In this document: positions 20,392-59,940 of the stretch, in pieces
How the letters are laid out: every line of letters starts with the position of its first letter
How positions within the stretch are numbered: the first letter of the stretch is position 1
Assembly (NCBI GenBank): GCA_018396775.1
Contig: JAGTRF010000004.1
Span: 16,214-80,213 of the forward strand
From: Candidatus Bathyarchaeota archaeon
Lineage (GTDB): Archaea > Thermoproteota > Bathyarchaeia > 40CM-2-53-6 > DTDX01
Direction of reading: 5' to 3'
Length of the DNA stretch: 64,000 nucleotides
Notes under the pieces: generated by a model
What the model saw: the letters and a program-made list of their open reading frames with translations, nothing else
The model's database searches: none
Told to the model about the DNA's origin: nothing
Position numbers and translations under genes: made by a program

Positions 20392-20509
20392 TGGCGCCGG
20401 GAGTGGGATTTGAACCCACGAGGCCTCAAAAAGGCCACAGGCTTTCGAGCCTAGATCTCCAGGCTTAGGCTTTTTTAAACTGCCCCGTACCAGGCTCGGG
20501 AATCCCGGC
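20392..20509 (-). tRNA. type-II tRNA (Ser-like, long variable arm), 118 nt with CCA encoded. Holds ~28-30 extra nt in the anticodon arm, a candidate non-canonical intron. Anticodon is ambiguous (possibly CGA)
   Basis: Reverse complement: GCCGGGA-TT-CCCG-AGCCTGGTA-CGGG-G-CAG[TTTAAAAAAGCCTAAGCCTGGAGATCTAG]GCTCGAAAGCCTG-TGGCCTTTTTGAGGCC-TCGTGGGTTCAAATCCCAC-TCCCGGC-G-CCA. Acceptor, T-arm and 3' anticodon-stem half are identical to the tRNA at 36541. Confidence 0.7.
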
Positions 20510-20557: not shown

Positions 20558-21564
20558 TTATTTCTTCCATAGTTTTGGATAGGTTCCAGGAGGCATTATA
20601 ACCCTTTTAATTTCAACAGCTAATCCTTTATTTAACTCTAAAATTTGCTCTGTTGAAAGCAAAGCATTACCTAAAGCTACAACCTCATTTTTTAAAGTGA
20701 AAATAGCTACTATTTGTTTTGGTTGAATATTGGATTCTATCCTTACTATTCCTGGAACTGCTAAATAAGCTCCATGGCATATAGCGTCAACAGCCGAATC
20801 TTTTATGTAAATTTTCGGAATATACTCGAAACATTCTTCAATTGGGCGAATAATCTTTCTTAATTTTTCCTCGCCTCCAAAATTTTTATATTCAATTGCA
20901 GCTTCGAAAACTTCATGAAGAGTATGAATTTTTTCGTTTTCAGTGAAGGGCCCTGTTCTAATTCTTCTAAGCTCTTTCATATGAGCCCCAACACCTAACG
21001 CTTCACCTACATCAAAACAAAGTTTCCGTATATAGGTTCCTGCTTGACAAGAAACTTTAAATAAAACTCTTCTCTCTTCAACTTCAAGTAGCTTAATATT
21101 GTAAATTCTTCGCTTCCTAACTTCTCGTTTAACTGAAGCTCTTAAAGGTGGTTTTTGATATATTTCTCCAGTAAACTCTTTTAAAGCGTTAACGATTTTT
21201 TCTTCTGTCACATTACTATGTAATTGCATTAAGCATATGTATTCTTTACCGGAGTGAAGAAAAACCTGTAAAGCTTTTGTAGCATCCTCTAAAGCTATTG
21301 GAAGCACGCCAGTTACTTTTGGGTTTCCTCAGCTTAAGCTTCTAAGGTCCCGCCGTGACCAGCGCGCTTCACATCTAATATTTTTTTCACCCAAGCTGTA
21401 ACTTCATGGCTTGAGGGCCCTGGTGGTTTATCTAAATTTATTGCTCCAAAATTTATATAGTTTTGCATCGATCTATTTTCAGGGAGACAACCATATTTAA
21501 AATCTGTTTCACACTCTTCCTTCACTATAATTTCTCTTTTCAACATCCATGGCGGAATCTCCAT
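20558..21564 (-). CDS. cbf5: tRNA/rRNA pseudouridine-55 synthase Cbf5 (TruB family, PUA domain). The reading frame is interrupted by a 17-nt insert at the catalytic GTLD|PKVTG motif
   Basis: ORF track shows an N-terminal piece (21334..21564, ...LDKPPGPSSHEVTAWVKKILDVKRAGHGGTLEA*) and a C-terminal piece (20558..21307, GTG start). Conserved coding actually resumes at 21322 (PKVTGVLPIALEDA...) in another frame. Confidence 0.8.
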
Positions 21565-33396: not shown

Positions 33397-34503
33397 ATGG
33401 GTTCAAATGAATATCTTAAATTAAAGGATTTAGATAAATTTGGAATGTTAAACTTTATAGAGAAAGCTCCAGATTATTTACGTTTAACTTTAAATTTAAT
33501 TAAAAGTGGAGAAGTAAACTGGAGTAAAAACCTTGAGAATTTAGAGGGTTTAAAGGTAGAGAACGTTTTAATCTCTGGGCTTGGCGGCTCAGCTATAAGC
33601 GGGGACATAATTGTTGATTGGATTTGGGAAAAAAGCTCCATTCCAATAATAGTTAACAGAGATTATAAATTACCTCAATTTGCTGGAGAAAAAACTGTCG
33701 TTATAACGGTTAGCTATTCTGGAAATACATTTGAAACTTTAAATCAATTTTATGAAGCTTATAAAAGAAAGTGTATTTTATTCAGCGTTTCTTCTGGAGG
33801 AAAATTGATGAAAGCTTCTGAAAGGCTTAAGATTCCTTTTTTAAAAGTTAAAGAAAGTCTTCCACCTCGTGCAGCTTTACCATGCCTGCTTCCAGCTGTA
33901 ACATATATTTTATCAAAGTTTGAGCATTCAATTTTGATTTCTGAATTGGAAGCGGCGGCAAATAAGATGGATGAGGTGAAAAAAGAGGTTGGATTCCATC
34001 GTAAAGTTGAAGAGAATCCAGCTAAAAAAATGGCTTTAAACATTATTGGAAAATATCCAGTAATATATGCTTTTGCAAATATGGGAAGCGTTGCTAGAAG
34101 GATAAAAGATCAAATTAATGAAAATAGCAAGGTTTCAGCTAAATTTGATTTTTTACCTGAAGCATGTCATAATGAAATTGAGGGAACATTTTTTCCGGTG
34201 AAAGAAAACCTTTGCTTTCTATTTATTGAGCCTCAAGAAAAAATTGAAAAAGTTATAAGCGAGGAATTTAAAAAAGTTTTAAGAGAGAATGGCTTCATTA
34301 ATATTTATGATATTCCAGTGAAAGGAGAAACTAAAATAGAGAAGATTCTTACATCAATTTATTTCGGGGATTTTACTTCATTTTACTTATCTTTAGCATA
34401 TAATGTTGACCCAACAGTTACGAAGAATATTCAAAAATATAAAAATGGAGTAAGCGAAGAAGCTTCAAAATTAATTAATTATTTTGAAAGCCTTATCCTT
34501 TAG
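33397..34503 (+). CDS. bifunctional phosphoglucose/phosphomannose isomerase (SIS-domain, archaeal PGI/PMI family)
   Basis: VLISGLGGSAISGDII...VITVSYSGNTFETL SIS motifs; 368 aa. Confidence 0.7.
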   Translation: MGSNEYLKLKDLDKFGMLNFIEKAPDYLRLTLNLIKSGEVNWSKNLENLEGLKVENVLISGLGGSAISGDIIVDWIWEKSSIPIIVNRDYKLPQFAGEKTVVITVSYSGNTFETLNQFYEAYKRKCILFSVSSGGKLMKASERLKIPFLKVKESLPPRAALPCLLPAVTYILSKFEHSILISELEAAANKMDEVKKEVGFHRKVEENPAKKMALNIIGKYPVIYAFANMGSVARRIKDQINENSKVSAKFDFLPEACHNEIEGTFFPVKENLCFLFIEPQEKIEKVISEEFKKVLRENGFINIYDIPVKGETKIEKILTSIYFGDFTSFYLSLAYNVDPTVTKNIQKYKNGVSEEASKLINYFESLIL

Positions 34504-35959
34504 TTACACCTAATGGAACTAATCTAGCTACTTTAAAGGCCACTCCAACCTTATGGCTTACTTCAGCCACTCTATCTACATCTTTATAAGCGTCAGGGGC
34601 CTCCTCGCTTACAACAGCTATGCTAGCTGCTCTAATTAATATTCCTTGATTTTCAAGTTTTTGCTTAACTTCGCTTCCCCAAAACCTTTTTTTAGCTGCA
34701 GCTCTGCTTAAAACTCTTCCAGCACCATGCGCAGTTGAGCCAAAACTAACTTCCATAGCTTTTTTAGAGCCAACTAAAACCCAAGAGCTTGTTCCCATGC
34801 TTCCTGGAATAATAACTGGTTGACCTATGCTTCTATATTTTGCTGGCACATCTTTATGCTCCGGAGGAAAAGCTCTTGTTGCACCTTTTCTATGAACACA
34901 AACAATTCTTCTTTTTCCATTAACAACATGCTCTTCCTTTTTAGCTATGTTATGAGCAACATCATATACTAAATGCATTCCTAAAGACTCAGCTGATCTA
35001 TTGAAAATTTTTTCAAAAGCTTGTCTAGTCCAATGCGTTATCATTTGCCTATTAGCCCAAGCAAAATTACATGCAGCTGCCATAGCAGGTAAATAATCTT
35101 CAGCTTCAGGGCTTTTTATTGGAGCGCAAGCCAATTCTCTATCTGGAAGCTTTATATCATATTTTTTAACAGCTCTCTCCATAACCTTTAAGTAATCATC
35201 GCATATTTGATGACCGAAACCTCTACTACCTGTGTGAACTAAAACCATGATTTGCCCTTCTTCCTCAATTCCAAAACTTTTAGCTATATTTTTGTTAAAA
35301 ATTTTATCCACAACCTCCACTTCTAAAAAATGGTTTCCACTTCCTAAGCTTCCAAGCTGAGGGTAACCTCTACTCTTAGCTATAGAGCTGACTTTACTTG
35401 GATTAGCGCTGCTCATGCATCCATTTTCCTCGCAGTTTTCAGCATCTTCAGGCCAACCGTAACCCGCATCTATAGCCCAATTAACGCCTTCAGAAGCTAC
35501 TTTATCAAGCTCTGAAAGAGCAACCCTTAATTTTCCCCTGCTTCCTAATCCTGAAGGAATATAATTAAATAATACATCAAGCAGCTTTGGTAAAACAGGT
35601 TTAACATCATTAATTCTTAAGTTAGTTCTTATAAGTCGAACTCCACAATTTATATCGTAACCCACTCCACCAGGGCTTACAACGCCCTCTTCATAATCTG
35701 TAGCTGCCACTCCACCTATTGGAAAACCATACCCTTCATGGCCATCAGGTAAAGTAATAGACCATTTATAAATTCCCGGTAAATGAGCTACATTAGCGCA
35801 CTGCTCAATCGTTAAATCCCCCTTCATTTTTTCAAGCAAAACTTCATCGCTATAAATTCTTCCTGGAACCCGCATTCCAGACTTATAAGAAGTTGGAATC
35901 TCCCAAATACATTCATCCAGCTTTATTAACGGAACATGCTCAGAGCTTCTTCCAGACAT
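34493..35959 (-). CDS. rtcB: RNA-splicing ligase RtcB (tRNA exon ligase)
   Basis: ...NVAHLPGI...PDGHEGYGFPIGGV...DINCGVRL...HTGSRGFGHQ...GSTAHGAGR; 488 aa, no intein. Confidence 0.9.
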   Translation of the reverse strand: MSGRSSEHVPLIKLDECIWEIPTSYKSGMRVPGRIYSDEVLLEKMKGDLTIEQCANVAHLPGIYKWSITLPDGHEGYGFPIGGVAATDYEEGVVSPGGVGYDINCGVRLIRTNLRINDVKPVLPKLLDVLFNYIPSGLGSRGKLRVALSELDKVASEGVNWAIDAGYGWPEDAENCEENGCMSSANPSKVSSIAKSRGYPQLGSLGSGNHFLEVEVVDKIFNKNIAKSFGIEEEGQIMVLVHTGSRGFGHQICDDYLKVMERAVKKYDIKLPDRELACAPIKSPEAEDYLPAMAAACNFAWANRQMITHWTRQAFEKIFNRSAESLGMHLVYDVAHNIAKKEEHVVNGKRRIVCVHRKGATRAFPPEHKDVPAKYRSIGQPVIIPGSMGTSSWVLVGSKKAMEVSFGSTAHGAGRVLSRAAAKKRFWGSEVKQKLENQGILIRAASIAVVSEEAPDAYKDVDRVAEVSHKVGVAFKVARLVPLGVTKG

Positions 35960-36023: not shown

Positions 36024-36458
36024 TTATAAATCCAAAATAAACTTTGCTATAAATTTACCCGACTCTTGAGAAATACTCATCTTATGGTAAGTTACTGCTT
36101 TAACCTCTGTTTTAGATAAATGCTTATTTTTATCAAATGCTTCCCCAAAAACTTCAGCCTCTAAATAAAATAAATTATTTACCTGCGTTATTTTTTTAAC
36201 GTTAAAAATCGAGTAAAGCTTTAATTCTATTTCAAACTTTAAGAGTAAAGCTTCAAGCCAATTATGAAGAAGCACTATTTCATCTTCTCCTTCAACTTTA
36301 ATTTCATCCCTCAATTGAGGTTCAATTAATTTTGTATCCGTCATAACTTCGAACATAGCTAATCCAGCATTACTAAAAGCTTCTTCTAAGCTTTCACCAT
36401 AAGCAGCTATATAAGCGTCGCCCACATGCTCTAAAAACTCAAATTTTTTATCAACCAT
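36024..36458 (-). CDS. archease (RtcB activator)
   Basis: 144 aa; FEFLEHVGDAYIAAYGESLEEAFSNAGLAMFEVMTD; sits immediately downstream of rtcB. Confidence 0.8.
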   Translation of the reverse strand: MVDKKFEFLEHVGDAYIAAYGESLEEAFSNAGLAMFEVMTDTKLIEPQLRDEIKVEGEDEIVLLHNWLEALLLKFEIELKLYSIFNVKKITQVNNLFYLEAEVFGEAFDKNKHLSKTEVKAVTYHKMSISQESGKFIAKFILDL

Positions 36459-36540: not shown

Positions 36541-36664
36541 GCCGGGATGGCCGAGTGGACTAACCTTAAGAAGGGTTTAAAGGCGCAGGCCTTGAGTTAA
36601 GTAAGACAGGACAGCCTGTGGCCCTTTCAGGGCCTCGTGGGTTCAAATCCCACTCCCGGCGCCA
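36541..36664 (+). tRNA. tRNA-Ser(UGA)-like type-II tRNA, 124 nt with CCA encoded and two candidate introns: 18 nt in the D-loop and 16 nt at canonical position 37/38
   Basis: GCCGGGA-TG-GCC-GAGTGGACTAA[CCTTAAGAAGGGTTTAAA]GGC-G-CAGGC-CTTGAG[TTAAGTAAGACAGGAC]A-GCCTG-TGGCCCTTTCAGGGCC-TCGTGGGTTCAAATCCCAC-TCCCGGC-G-CCA. Confidence 0.7.
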
Positions 36665-44771: not shown

Positions 44772-44813
44772 CTGCTTATAATGCAAATCTCCCTTAAAAA
44801 TTGCATATACTGA

Positions 44814-44887
44814 AGCCCCGGGCGGGCTTCGAACCCGCGACCTGCGGCTTACGAGGCCGCCGCTCTACCAGGCTAAGCCACCGGGGC
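44814..44887 (-). tRNA. tRNA-Thr(CGU), 74 nt, no intron, CCA not encoded
   Basis: Reverse complement: GCCCCGG-TG-GCTT-AGCCTGGTAGAGC-GGCGG-CCTCGTAA-GCCGC-AGGTC-GCGGG-TTCGAAG-CCCGC-CCGGGGC-T. Very GC-rich stems. Confidence 0.85.
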
Positions 44888-44937
44888 TTAATTTTAAATT
44901 AAAGTTTAATTAAAGCGTTTAAAGAGGATGCTTAAAT

Positions 44938-55864: not shown

Positions 55865-56905
55865 TTGAAGATAAAATTGGTTAAATTAAAGGCTAGAGAA
55901 GGCGATTTTCTTTTAACAATAGATAAACTCTTCTTTGATGTTAAAGGCTATTTACATCCCCCTGATCGAATAATAAGCTTTATTCGTTATTATCCAAGCA
56001 AAAGAGGAGAAAGAATCGTTAATAAAGAAAAATACGCGAAAATTTACGAGTTAAAAAAAAGATTTAAATTTCTTAAGAAAAAATATCCAATTTACATTTA
56101 TTATGATGGCGTTTTCCACTCTATAATACAGGGCGTTCCAATAAATATGGTTAAGAAGCTTTATAATCCTAAAGAAAAAGTTAAGGAATTAATGAAAAAC
56201 AACAAATTTAAAGTTGAAAGTGAAGCATTAAATTTAATTCAAGCTTTAGGTAAAGAAGCTAATCAAGAAATAAATAGATTCGGGGTTACAGGCTCAATTT
56301 TAGTAAATTTATTTACAAATGATTCAGATTTAGATGTGATTGTTTATGGATTTAAAGCAGCTGTTAAAGTTTATGAAGCTTTAAGAAAGTTAATTCAAGA
56401 AAGAAAAGAGTTTAAACCATGCGATAAAAAAGAATTATATAAAATTTATTTAGCTAGAGGAATGAATAAAGCTTTAAGCTTTAAAGATTTTTATGAAAAT
56501 GAGAAGAACAAGATTCTTCAAGGAAAATTTCATGAAAAAAACTATTTCATAAGATGCGTTAAAGACTGGAATGAAGTAAAAGAAGCTTATGGAGATGAAA
56601 TCTATTATCCAATTGGATTAAGCAAAATTAAAGCTATAGTGATTAATAACGAAGAAAGCATTTTAACACCTTGTAAATATGAAGTTTCTAATATTAAAGT
56701 TTTATCTGGAAGAAAAGCATTAATAAAGGAGATCGTATCTTTTAGAGGAAGATTCTGTGAGGCAGCTTCTATTGGAGATAAAATAATTGCTAGAGGCAAG
56801 CTTGAGAAAGTAATAAATGCGAAAGACAATAGTGAATTTCACCGTTTAATTTTAGGAGAAAACTCTAAAGACTTCCTAATTGTTAAGGAGAAAAGTAAAA
56901 CTTGA
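55865..56905 (+). CDS. uncharacterised protein with central pol-beta-type nucleotidyltransferase motif (paralogue A of three)
   Basis: N-terminal FFDVKGYLHPPDRIISFIRYYPSK; core NRFGVTGSILVNLFTNDSDLDVIVYG (hG[GS]-x9-13-DhD); C-terminal ESILTPCKYEV...EIVSFRGRF...GKLEKV...FHRLILG. TTG start; overlaps paralogue B by 4 nt. Confidence 0.6.
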   Translation: MKIKLVKLKAREGDFLLTIDKLFFDVKGYLHPPDRIISFIRYYPSKRGERIVNKEKYAKIYELKKRFKFLKKKYPIYIYYDGVFHSIIQGVPINMVKKLYNPKEKVKELMKNNKFKVESEALNLIQALGKEANQEINRFGVTGSILVNLFTNDSDLDVIVYGFKAAVKVYEALRKLIQERKEFKPCDKKELYKIYLARGMNKALSFKDFYENEKNKILQGKFHEKNYFIRCVKDWNEVKEAYGDEIYYPIGLSKIKAIVINNEESILTPCKYEVSNIKVLSGRKALIKEIVSFRGRFCEAASIGDKIIARGKLEKVINAKDNSEFHRLILGENSKDFLIVKEKSKT

Positions 56906-57933
56906 GAAGATTTAGAGATAGAGATTATATTAAAACTTTTGATGAGTTATATTTTACAGTTTTAGGAAATACACATCCAAAAGATAAAGTTATAGCTTAT
57001 TTAAAATATGCGCCATCGAAAAAAGGTATTTGGGGTAAATATCCTCACCTTTATGATAGACCAATTAAGGAATATACGATTCATAACATTAAAAAAATGA
57101 TGAATTTCTTAAAAAAGAATTACCCGCATTATATTCATAAAATTTTTAATATAGATTTCTCAGCTGTACCATGCGAAAGCATAATGACTCATTATAAACC
57201 TGAAGAAAAACTTCAACAATTAATAAAATTAAATGTTAAAGATGAGCTCCAAAAGAAAGTTGTTGAGTTAGCTTTAACTTTATCTAAAGAGAGTAAAGTA
57301 GAGATTAAAGATTTTGGGGTAACAGGTTCTATACTAATTGATTTACATAAATTGAATTTTTCTGATATAGATTTGACAGTTTATGGAAAAGAAAACAGTT
57401 TAGCTGTTAAAAAAGCTTTAAAGAACATTTACTCTAAAGAAGGTGAAATTCAAAAGTTTTCTATTAAAGATTTTGAAGAATGGTATAAAATAAAAGGACG
57501 CCTTTACCCATTAACGCTTAAAGAAGCTTTAACTCTTTTTGAGAAAGCTTGGAATAAAGGAAAATTTAAAGAAACACCTTTTTCAATTCACCCTATTAAA
57601 ATTGAAAGCGAGATTAAAGAAGATTACTATAAAAGACAGTATTTTCCAATATCTTTAGTTGCAGGTAAAGCAAAAATTATTGATGCAAGCGAATCAATTT
57701 TTATGCCTGGGAAATACAAAGTTGAATGCAAATTAAAGAGAGAAGTGAAAGTAAATGAAATTGTAACTTTCGAAGGGTTTTATGCTGGAGTAGCTGAAGA
57801 AGGAGAAGAAATTTTATTTAAAGGAAAATTAGAAAAAGTGGAAGATAAAAACAAAAATGAAAGTTACTTTAGAATCGTTGTAGGTTCGCTTGAAGCTAAA
57901 GGAGAAGATTACATAAAGATTGTTAAGGATTAG
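56902..57933 (+). CDS. uncharacterised pol-beta-type nucleotidyltransferase-motif protein (paralogue B)
   Basis: YFTVLGNTHPKDKVIAYLKYAPSK; KDFGVTGSILIDLHKLNFSDIDLTVYG; ESIFMPGKYKV...EIVTFEGFY...GKLEKV...YFRIVVG. Confidence 0.6.
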   Translation: MRRFRDRDYIKTFDELYFTVLGNTHPKDKVIAYLKYAPSKKGIWGKYPHLYDRPIKEYTIHNIKKMMNFLKKNYPHYIHKIFNIDFSAVPCESIMTHYKPEEKLQQLIKLNVKDELQKKVVELALTLSKESKVEIKDFGVTGSILIDLHKLNFSDIDLTVYGKENSLAVKKALKNIYSKEGEIQKFSIKDFEEWYKIKGRLYPLTLKEALTLFEKAWNKGKFKETPFSIHPIKIESEIKEDYYKRQYFPISLVAGKAKIIDASESIFMPGKYKVECKLKREVKVNEIVTFEGFYAGVAEEGEEILFKGKLEKVEDKNKNESYFRIVVGSLEAKGEDYIKIVKD

Positions 57934-58831
57934 ATTCTAAAGCTTCTTTTAAGTTTATTTGAATAGGGCCCAATTTTCCACCAAAGTTAACTGCACTTAT
58001 TTTTTTAACTCCTTTAACCTGAGCTGCAGCTTTAATTCCAGCAGCGGTAGCTTTCTTTACAATTTTTGTTGTAACACCATTAAACACTATTTCGTAAACG
58101 CTGTTAACGCCTTCAGGAACTTTACTATCTTCAATTAAGCTTTTTAAAGCTGGACAGTAAGGATGATTTGTTGAAGCTGGAAGCTTATATTTTCTAGCAC
58201 CAACCTTAGATCCGGACCTGCATATTCCACCTGGAAAAGGAAGAATTACACCCTCAATCTTTTGAATAGCTTCAACAGCTTTTTCAGCAGCTTCTAAAGC
58301 AGCCTTCCTATTTTCAGCCATTATAAGAAAATTTCCTCCAGCTGCACATCTTCTAACCCCAAACCTATCTTCTATAATAAATTCGCCCTCCATCACTGGA
58401 ATTCTCCAAATTTTTCTTTCAGCTAAAACATCACTTTTTTCAAACCCATCTCCAAACAGTTTAATTGCTCTACCCACCTTCAATCTTTTTTTAGCTAAAG
58501 GCATAGCATCAAAAGCAGCTGTGGTTGGGCAAGTTAATACGCATTGACCTAACCTGCTTATCAATTGAAGCTTTAAAGCGCTTCCAAACCTATGGTAAAC
58601 TTGAATATAAACTCCCGGCCTGTTATCTGGAGTTTCATTTGGTGAAGCTATAGGCCCTTCAAACCCTGCTTCAGCTGGAGACATAATTATAGATGAAGCG
58701 AAGCCTGTAGCGGTTTTAGCAGCTGTTAAAGCCCACTTCTCGTTTTCAGCTGTAATTAAAACTCTTGAAGCCCACATTGGAAAAGCTTCAGCAAAATCAT
58801 TATCATCAATCTCCACTTCCCCAATTTTCAT
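57923..58831 (-). CDS. ftr: formylmethanofuran:tetrahydromethanopterin N-formyltransferase
   Basis: MKIGEVEIDDNDFAEAFPMWASRVLITAENEKWALTAAKTATGFASSIIMSPAEAGFE...; 302 aa, collinear with Ftr proteins. Confidence 0.85.
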   Translation of the reverse strand: MKIGEVEIDDNDFAEAFPMWASRVLITAENEKWALTAAKTATGFASSIIMSPAEAGFEGPIASPNETPDNRPGVYIQVYHRFGSALKLQLISRLGQCVLTCPTTAAFDAMPLAKKRLKVGRAIKLFGDGFEKSDVLAERKIWRIPVMEGEFIIEDRFGVRRCAAGGNFLIMAENRKAALEAAEKAVEAIQKIEGVILPFPGGICRSGSKVGARKYKLPASTNHPYCPALKSLIEDSKVPEGVNSVYEIVFNGVTTKIVKKATAAGIKAAAQVKGVKKISAVNFGGKLGPIQINLKEALESNP

Positions 58832-58881: not shown

Positions 58882-59940
58882 TTAGCTAATTGTTTTAAGG
58901 GTTTGCTCATAATATCTTTTACCATAAGTTAAAACAAGCTGGTAAAGCTTTTCTCTATTACTTAATTTAACAAGCTCTAGATTTCCCTCTGCATAAATTT
59001 TATCTCCCTCTTTAGCTTGCATTCTAAATTCTTCAATATAGGAAACTATAGCGTCAATTCTAGAAACTTTAAAACCTTTAATTTCTTTAGCTTCAATCCA
59101 ATAAATAGAAGGCATAAAAATTGATTCCGACTCATTAATAACTTTTCCAATAACTGATACCCATCCCAACTTCTTAATTTTTAAAGGGTAAATCTGTTGA
59201 TTAACAATTTCTTTATCGCTTTTAACAGGTTCAAACTCTACTTTTATTTTTCTATTAAAGCTTTTATCAATTAAAACACCGTAAACTAATTTTCTTTTTT
59301 GATGGGCGAAAAACTCTTTTAAGGAAAGCTTTTTAAATCTCCACTTTTCTTTAAATGGTAAAACTTCAAATTCATTAGCCATAAAGCTTTTTTCATTATA
59401 AAATTCTTTTAACACATCTTTTAACTCAAGCAACTGTTTCCTACCATAAATGATGAAATCTAAATCAGAGTAGCTTGGATGATAAAAATCATGAAGAATT
59501 GAACCGAAAACTCCAAAATCATTAATTGAAAGTTTTGAGCGATTTAAAATTTCTGAAATAACTTTGAAAAGAGCCCTTATTAATTCATTATTTTTCTCGC
59601 TGTAAAAAACAGTTTTTAATTTTTCTTCAGGAAACTTAATTTGAGAAATCTGGTTTTTCTTTAAACCAATTAAGTTAAATTTTAAATGTGGGTGCTTCAC
59701 TTTATATTGAGGAAACTTCTTTTCAATAAATAATATTCCTTCATGCTCATAAAATTTGTAATATTTTTCGCCTTGAAACCCCTCTCTAAAAGCTTTAGAG
59801 TTTTTAGAATTAAATATTTTTAAAGGCGCGTATTCAGCGTCGCAAATAAAACCATTCACTGGATGCGTATACCCTAAAACCCTAAATATTATTCCCTCTT
59901 TAGAAGTTAACGCATCTCTATCTTTAATAATATTTCTCAT
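58882..59940 (-). CDS. uncharacterised pol-beta-type nucleotidyltransferase-motif protein (paralogue C, opposite strand)
   Basis: IFRVLGYTHPVNGFICDAEYAPLK; NDFGVFGSILHDFYHPSYSDLDFIIYG; ESIFMPSIYWI...AIVSYIEEF...GNLELV...YQLVLTYG. Confidence 0.6.
   Translation of the reverse strand: MRNIIKDRDALTSKEGIIFRVLGYTHPVNGFICDAEYAPLKIFNSKNSKAFREGFQGEKYYKFYEHEGILFIEKKFPQYKVKHPHLKFNLIGLKKNQISQIKFPEEKLKTVFYSEKNNELIRALFKVISEILNRSKLSINDFGVFGSILHDFYHPSYSDLDFIIYGRKQLLELKDVLKEFYNEKSFMANEFEVLPFKEKWRFKKLSLKEFFAHQKRKLVYGVLIDKSFNRKIKVEFEPVKSDKEIVNQQIYPLKIKKLGWVSVIGKVINESESIFMPSIYWIEAKEIKGFKVSRIDAIVSYIEEFRMQAKEGDKIYAEGNLELVKLSNREKLYQLVLTYGKRYYEQTLKTIS

Follow-up and report, generated by a model that had tools for sequence, protein, structure and literature searches.

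A tRNA-Ser(UGA) gene with two short introns, one of them in the D-loop, in a hot-spring Bathyarchaeota MAG

The segment 36541-36664 on the forward strand of the window (the whole 64,000-nucleotide stretch of DNA that was analysed) is a tRNA-Ser(UGA) gene with two short introns. This confirms what the initial annotation had observed, a 124-nt gene carrying two blocks at 36564-36581 and 36597-36612, and the sequence is as it was quoted there. The gene (GCCGGGATGGCCGAGTGGACTAACCTTAAGAAGGGTTTAAAGGCGCAGGCCTTGAGTTAAGTAAGACAGGACAGCCTGTGGCCCTTTCAGGGCCTCGTGGGTTCAAATCCCACTCCCGGCGCCA, 124 nt) has a G73 discriminator and an encoded CCA (36662-36664), and forms an island of high GC in a window whose GC content is about 32%. 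The host is a thermophilic, hot-spring Bathyarchaeota MAG belonging to TACK, and the archease encoded next to the tRNA has an identical counterpart on JAWCKM010000001.1 (GCA_038852005.1, labelled Candidatus Bathyarchaeota archaeon by NCBI). The accompanying interpretation of the inserts is supported as well, as both of them behave like archaeal BHB introns. Very probably this is a functional class-II tRNA-Ser(UGA) gene whose 124-nt precursor carries two independent BHB introns. Judged from sequence comparison, the two-intron arrangement is genuine, widely conserved and of a kind well known in TACK archaea.

How does such a gene appear to the usual tRNA finders? ARAGORN at default settings leaves 36541-36664 uncalled, and its sole call in the window is a tRNA-Thr at 44812-44888; the same tRNA-Thr is the single tRNA found with Rfam at the gathering threshold, where the segment goes unreported. 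When the 324-nt region around the gene is compared with Rfam at E<=10, the tRNA model is absent from the matches, and fragments of the T-arm alone match, to unrelated families. With its intron search switched on, ARAGORN forces the segment into a tRNA-His(GUG) in which the intron is 41 nt long and the D-stem has only two marked pairs. Without the 18-nt block of the D-region the call changes to tRNA-Ser(UGA), and a 16-nt intron is placed after position 37; once both blocks (18 + 16 nt) are deleted, the call is a tRNA-Ser(UGA) of 90 nt that is free of introns, ends in CCA and has a long variable arm that is paired. The claim of a serine tRNA interrupted twice therefore held when both inserts were removed in silico, while ARAGORN, which the initial annotation had proposed as a check, was silent by default, gave a spurious tRNA-His with -i and returned tRNA-Ser(UGA) after block removal. 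Class-II tRNA-Ser is defined by a cloverleaf, a long variable arm and a serine anticodon, and archaeal tRNA-Ser typically has G73. After in-silico splicing the segment is a tRNA-Ser(tga) with the long variable arm, G73 and CCA.

The geometry of BHB introns is established: a 4-bp helix lies between two 3-nt bulges, and each bulge is cut after its second nucleotide. The frame used here follows it, with a 4-nt helix segment and then, on its 3' side, a 3-nt bulge on each strand and the cut after the second bulge nucleotide. Divided in this way, the gene begins with exon 1 (36541-36562, 22 nt, GCCGGGATGGCCGAGTGGACTA), which holds the 5' strands of the acceptor and D-stems and the D-loop as far as A21; of its last 6 nt, GGAC serves as the 5' strand of the central helix and UA makes up the first two positions of the 5' bulge. 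The non-canonical intron 1 (36563-36580, 18 nt, ACCTTAAGAAGGGTTTAA), located by the BHB scan, sits in the D-loop between A21 and A22. Exon 2 (36581-36596, 16 nt, AGGCGCAGGCCTTGAG) runs from A22 through the D-stem 3' strand, G26 and the anticodon-stem 5' strand to G37 of the anticodon loop, and carries the anticodon UGA. It is followed by intron 2 (36597-36612, 16 nt, TTAAGTAAGACAGGAC) at the canonical position 37/38, placed both by ARAGORN once intron 1 is removed and by the BHB scan, and by exon 3 (36613-36664, 52 nt), with A38, the anticodon-stem 3' strand, the long variable arm, the T-arm, the acceptor 3' strand, G73 and CCA. All five segments are on the forward strand. The D-stem is numbered G10-C25, C11-G24 and C12-G23, with G13/A22 as the usual non-Watson-Crick pair of class-II tRNAs, and this numbering puts intron 1 at 21/22.

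Intron 1 has a central helix GGAC/guuu (G18-u, G19-u, A20-u, C20a-g), in which two of the four pairs are G-U in this genome, and a 3-nt bulge on each of the two strands, [U20b A21|a] and [a a|A22]. Its inner helix ccuu/aagg has four Watson-Crick pairs and the loop aag; the hairpin CCTT-AAG-AAGG, remarked on from the start, is thus the inner helix of a D-loop BHB with a 3-4-3 core. Where exactly does the insert begin and end? The 18-nt insert in the D-loop stands, and the boundaries first given to it do not, for the BHB frame lies 1 nt to the left, at 36563-36580. A run of A leaves three choices of boundary, all of which give one identical mature RNA, and 36563-36580 is the only frame that places both splice sites in 3-nt bulges 4 bp apart. 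With 36564-36581 the central helix would be GACU/uuua, which fails in a hand check, and the frame 2 nt to the left of 36564-36581 fails likewise. On the exon side, the BHB scan finds a single U16-G23 wobble, and once the D-stem is formed the 3' splice site falls in a 4x3 internal loop. The strict hBHBh' motif, in the wording quoted in a passage of PMC7714728, has at least two Watson-Crick pairs in both flanking helices. Intron 1 has 4 bp in its inner helix and one wobble on the exon side, and since a proper exon-side closing helix is missing, its motif is relaxed and not a strict hBHBh'.

The 16-nt block at 37/38 proved to have standard geometry in the BHB scan, with C32-g, U33-g, U34-a and G35-c forming the central helix CUUG/cagg and with bulges [A36 G37|u] and [a c|A38]. 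Its outer helix is the 7-bp anticodon stem and its inner helix is 1 bp only. In position, in the pairing of nucleotides 32-35 with the 3' end of the intron, in its 3-nt bulges and in the use of the anticodon stem as outer helix, intron 2 resembles the canonical archaeal 37/38 intron (Marck and Grosjean 2003, as cited in a passage of PMC7714728); unlike the strict hBHBh' form of that intron quoted there, its intron-side helix of 1 bp makes it relaxed and bulge-helix-loop-like. Both motifs are relaxed, as had been supposed, intron 1 through the missing exon-side closing helix and intron 2 through its 1-bp inner helix. Self-splicing introns of group I or group II were also considered and rejected for inserts of 18 and 16 nt in which Rfam finds no intron match. 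Such introns have a catalytic RNA core and measure hundreds of nucleotides.

How much weight can a relaxed motif carry? A loose BHB scan that allows G-U pairs lists dozens of chance frames per gene, and for this reason a frame was accepted only where both the mature tRNA and the relatives agreed with it. In 200,000 composition-preserving shuffles of the 18-nt insert, a 4-bp central helix arose in 2.6%, and in 0.02% (2e-4) it was accompanied by an inner helix of 4 bp or more. Close relatives were fetched through their archease homologues (L003-L006, 85-90% identical and syntenic). They carry this gene too, and none of its three exons differs from its counterpart in the window; in intron 1 the helices and bulges are kept and the loop aag is replaced by aaa or by a 12-nt loop, and in the place of intron 2 there are unrelated sequences of 15-17 nt. 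A scan of species-representative genomes with the 3' end of the tRNA led to about 120 tRNA-Ser genes, which belong to Bathyarchaeia, Nitrososphaeria and a small number of further lineages. Among them are intron-less tRNA-Ser(UGA) orthologues that display the D-loop predicted for the mature molecule (L088, GTGGACTAA, quoted a second time as GGCAGAGTGGACTAATGCG; L111, GTCGACTAA and GGCCGAGTCGACTAAGGCG; L087, GCGGACTAA and GGCAGAGCGGACTAATGCG), and many other tRNA-Ser genes carry one to three inserts, the gene of L112 reaching 148 nt. D-loop inserts are frequent in tRNA-Ser of Nitrososphaeria and other TACK MAGs (L112, L051, L070, L066, L015, L085, L108, L018), and some of these genes, such as that of L112, have three inserts.

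The D-loop insert itself was followed with a metagenome scan for GGCCGAGTGG-N10-40-GGCGCAGGCCTTGA, which gave at least 120 matches. Together with the loci fetched earlier, the matches listed contain 66 distinct D-loop inserts, two of which are spurious. Among the matches listed, 62 of the remaining 64 share the register of the window, and L150 and L191 have a register displaced by 1 nt. In these 62 inserts, again among the matches listed, a central helix of GGA(C/U) with (g/a)u(c/u)(c/u) is bounded by the bulges [UA|n] and [an|A/U], and the inner helix, usually of 2-6 bp, closes a loop of 3-14 nt; insert length ranges from 16 to 27 nt across the homologues listed. A gapless, exon-anchored alignment of 45 distinct rows from the matches listed has 88.1% of its eight pairs formed vs 77.6% in column shuffles, none of 500 shuffles reaching the observed value, and contains 45 double-sided changes vs 13.3 expected; slid controls are only 31-59% paired. 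The central helix varies through G-U/G-C and U-G/C-G switches, and in the inner helix each of the four pairs has undergone full compensatory change. Conserved exons and splice geometry around a loop free in sequence and length form the pattern of a BHB intron, unlike that of a retained expansion or of a pseudogene. By these comparisons the D-loop intron forms an old family, conserved by vertical descent and associated with tRNA-Ser(UGA). The canonical site of the relatives (L003-L006 and many of L130-L249) often has two or three of four central-helix pairs in the standard frame, as in ...aaag[aa|A] and ...aacg[ta|A], which suggests that the 37/38 introns of the clade are routinely relaxed or shifted in register.

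Three other explanations of the segment were weighed against this pair of introns. The insert in the D-region could be a lineage-specific expansion kept in the mature tRNA, with the 37/38 intron alone removed. The missing exon-side helix and a minimum free energy (MFE) fold without the BHB speak for this; on the other hand, what is conserved in the insert is solely what marks a splice substrate (a helix of 4 bp, a covarying closing hairpin and a pair of 3-nt bulges whose distance from the exons is fixed), while its length and loop sequence drift freely (16 to 27 nt among the matches listed), and orthologues devoid of the insert have the same D-loop. Mature tRNAs need G18-G19 for the contact between D-loop and T-loop, and a retained insert would sequester these two nucleotides. 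We regard a retained expansion as very unlikely. That the gene is a decaying pseudogene with insertions, a functional tRNA-Ser(UGA) being encoded elsewhere in the genome, would fit its rejection by default tRNA finders. This is harder still to believe of a gene whose three exons are invariant in relatives with an archease 85-90% identical while the introns have diverged, whose exon stretches used in the search pattern recur around D-loop inserts on at least 120 metagenome contigs, which has archease divergently upstream at 116 loci among the matches listed, down to 39% archease identity, and in which both inserts lie in precise BHB frames.

The remaining alternative changes the identity or the boundaries of the gene, either to the tRNA-His(GUG) with its 41-nt intron or to a tRNA-Ser(UGA) with a 22-nt D-loop intron, ACTAACCTTAAGAAGGGTTTAA, which would leave a very short D-loop and use the D-stem GCC/GGC as outer helix. 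Each has a program output behind it: the former is what ARAGORN -i returns, and the latter is a frame listed by the BHB scan, with 3 bp outside, 4 bp in the centre and 2 bp inside. The histidine tRNA has the two marked D-stem pairs, builds its anticodon stem from an intron hairpin and discards the real anticodon arm, and a far better tRNA-Ser appears as soon as two short blocks are taken out; it was rejected as an artefact of forcing a single anticodon-loop intron. In the 22-nt frame, the central helix GAGU/guuu has three of four pairs as G-U or U-G, A14 would face a C in 58 relatives among the matches listed (third position C in gucc, gucu and aucc), and ACUA/AUUA is kept in the D-loop of the intron-less orthologues. 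Taken together, these other identities or boundaries can hardly be credited, and the reading with introns of 18 and 16 nt at 21/22 and 37/38 is preferred.

How would the two introns be removed? In archaeal tRNA splicing, the endonuclease EndA cuts both bulges of the BHB and the ligase RtcB joins the exons with the help of archease. In the precursor described here, G18-G19-A20-C20a would base-pair with the g-u-u-u that lies close to the 3' end of intron 1, and this pairing would bring the phosphodiesters U20b-A21|a and a-a|A22 into 3-nt bulges on opposite strands, 4 bp apart, with the ccuu/aagg hairpin of the intron itself closing the intron side. Intron 2 would adopt the standard 37/38 structure through anticodon-loop nucleotides 32-35. 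EndA would then cut each bulge after the second nucleotide, and RtcB, stimulated by archease and encoded with it directly upstream on the opposite strand, would join the exons, leaving a 90-nt mature tRNA in which CCA is already present. According to a passage of PMC5829648, motifs that are relaxed and introns at non-canonical positions require endonucleases of the (alpha-beta)2 or epsilon2 type, and the (alpha-beta)2 enzyme is found mainly in TACK, Bathyarchaeota included (PMC7714728). By analogy, this archaeon would be expected to have the (alpha-beta)2 enzyme of broad specificity that is typical of the TACK group. Pfam detects no EndA (tRNA_int_endo domain) among 38 ORFs of the window, and a tblastn search of the window with an M. 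jannaschii EndA sequence as query, which is weak evidence, gave no match to EndA.

Folding energies favour another conformer. Left unconstrained, the precursor has an MFE structure of -55.2 kcal/mol that does not resemble a tRNA and contains an AACCUU/AGGGUU hairpin, and the enforced cloverleaf-plus-BHB fold, at -40.6 kcal/mol, is less favourable, which counts against the BHB conformer. The MFE structure of the mature tRNA is not a cloverleaf either, and the competing AACCUU/AGGGUU hairpin is not conserved in relatives whose sequences were read by eye. Because neither the BHB nor even the cloverleaf is recovered, MFE folding of single sequences is uninformative here.

Is the host otherwise equipped with BHB introns? 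The window contains further ones, in a second serine tRNA gene (at 29/30 and 37/38) and in the mRNA of cbf5, and these indicate that the host uses a BHB splicing system. The second tRNA gene lies on the reverse strand at 20392-20509, 16 kb from tRNA-Ser(UGA); it measures 118 nt and is missed by default ARAGORN and by Rfam as well. Its intron at 29/30 (20465-20479, reverse strand, 15 nt) has the central helix GGGC/gccu and the bulges [AG|u] and [aa|G], and the BHB at this position is common to loci of Bathyarchaeia and Nitrososphaeria; the intron at 37/38 (20444-20456, reverse strand, 13 nt) is relaxed. The gene is assigned as tRNA-Ser(GGA) because relatives conserve GCCTGGA(A/G). A tRNA-Ser(CGA) with an intron at 32/33, which ARAGORN accepts, was ruled out, as CTCGA is not what the relatives conserve.

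Immediately upstream of tRNA-Ser(GGA), on the same strand, cbf5 (20558-21564, reverse strand) is split by a 17-nt BHB intron (21325-21341, reverse strand) with the central helix CCUU/gagg and the bulges [AG|a] and [aa|A], which bears out the link to cbf5 drawn in the initial annotation. The intron lies within the Asp codon that follows GHGGTL (GHGGTL|D), and splicing in silico restores a Cbf5 of 329 aa. About 20 other loci of the genome scan have an intron of 18-29 nt with a covarying helix at the same site, and the gene is contiguous in 7 loci. A cbf5 intron has been described for Desulfurococcales and Sulfolobales and scored absent in Cenarchaeum, Nitrosopumilus and Korarchaeum, in a survey in which Bathyarchaeota were unsampled; as a BHB intron of a pre-mRNA it is the same type of endonuclease substrate as the tRNA introns, located in a protein-coding gene (PMC2738675). 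The spacer between cbf5 and the tRNA-Ser(GGA) that follows it on the same strand is 48 nt here, and cbf5 is present in many 8-kb loci centred on tRNA-Ser(GGA) (L017, L061, L075, L099, L047 and others). The intron-bearing cbf5 mRNA and the intron-bearing tRNA-Ser(GGA) may be co-transcribed.

What of the splicing genes next to tRNA-Ser(UGA)? Archease (36024-36458, reverse strand, Pfam PF01951) is divergent from the tRNA across an 82-bp spacer and is followed by RtcB (34493-35959, reverse strand, Pfam PF01139). Among the matches listed, archease lies divergently upstream of tRNA-Ser(UGA) in 116 of the 128 pattern-matching loci, with spacers of 61-806 bp in 114 of these and 3297 bp in two, and with archease identities from 39% to 100% at the paired loci. 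The 12 unpaired loci among the matches listed comprise two that are spurious and ten in which the tRNA is about 50-350 nt from the end of the locus, lacking upstream DNA. The pairing is missing in several other lineages (L116, L126, L087, L111, L022/L023). Intron-less tRNA-Ser(UGA) genes also adjoin archease (L016, L121, L088), which weakens the case for a coupling that depends on the introns. The pairing of tRNA-Ser(UGA) with archease-RtcB looks like an old synteny, independent of introns. A regulatory coupling could, for example, take the form of a shared bidirectional promoter region that ties the supply of ligase and activator to transcription of the intron-bearing pre-tRNA. That the pairing is a regulatory coupling and that the tRNA-Ser(UGA) D-loop, tRNA-Ser(GGA) 29/30 and cbf5 introns are ancient fixed features of Bathyarchaeia is, as a combined proposal, unlikely in our estimate. 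As the 29/30 intron is shared with Nitrososphaeria, the positions of introns might be usable as deep markers of phylogeny within TACK. Elsewhere in the window, three ORFs of about 345 aa (55865-56905 and 56902-57933 on the forward strand, 58882-59940 on the reverse strand), each with a weak match to a nucleotidyltransferase domain, flank a gene for formylmethanofuran:H4MPT formyltransferase (57923-58831).

How do these genes compare with known systems? The non-canonical positions 20/21, 22/23, 25/26 and 29/30 are catalogued (PMC4090602), and for Crenarchaeota and Thaumarchaeota it is established that introns occur in the D-arm and anticodon stem and that one tRNA gene may hold two or three of them (PMC4090602, PMC8450103). 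The site 21/22 of the D-loop intron is absent from the explicit list in PMC4090602; the boundaries first given to the insert would correspond to 22/23. Like the multi-intron tRNAs of Thermoproteales, other Crenarchaeota and Thaumarchaeota, tRNA-Ser(UGA) has short BHB introns of the protein-spliced kind, more than one per gene, in a TACK host, and relaxed motifs that lack one outer helix, as the D-loop intron does, are known among tRNA introns of Crenarchaeota and Thaumarchaeota. The setting among Thermoproteales-type crenarchaea suggested initially applies to the kind of intron, multiple and non-canonical, and not to the host lineage, which is a Bathyarchaeota MAG. Nor does the D-loop intron look like a product of a recent burst of transposition such as has been described for Thermoproteales. 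A literature search found no description of tRNA introns in Bathyarchaeota.

The gene is an annotation trap. Default ARAGORN and Rfam miss both tRNA-Ser(UGA) and tRNA-Ser(GGA), so a genome annotated in this way would seem to lack two serine isoacceptors and would be rated as less complete; tRNAscan-SE 2.0 has dedicated BHB models for non-canonical introns (PMC8450103). The mechanism was established already, and the finding extends its distribution, not the concept: Bathyarchaeia are placed among the archaea with conserved non-canonical and multiple tRNA introns. The more than 60 natural variants of one D-loop BHB substrate, counted among the matches listed, form a set that can help to define the requirements of the TACK-type endonuclease for substrates without an exon-side helix.
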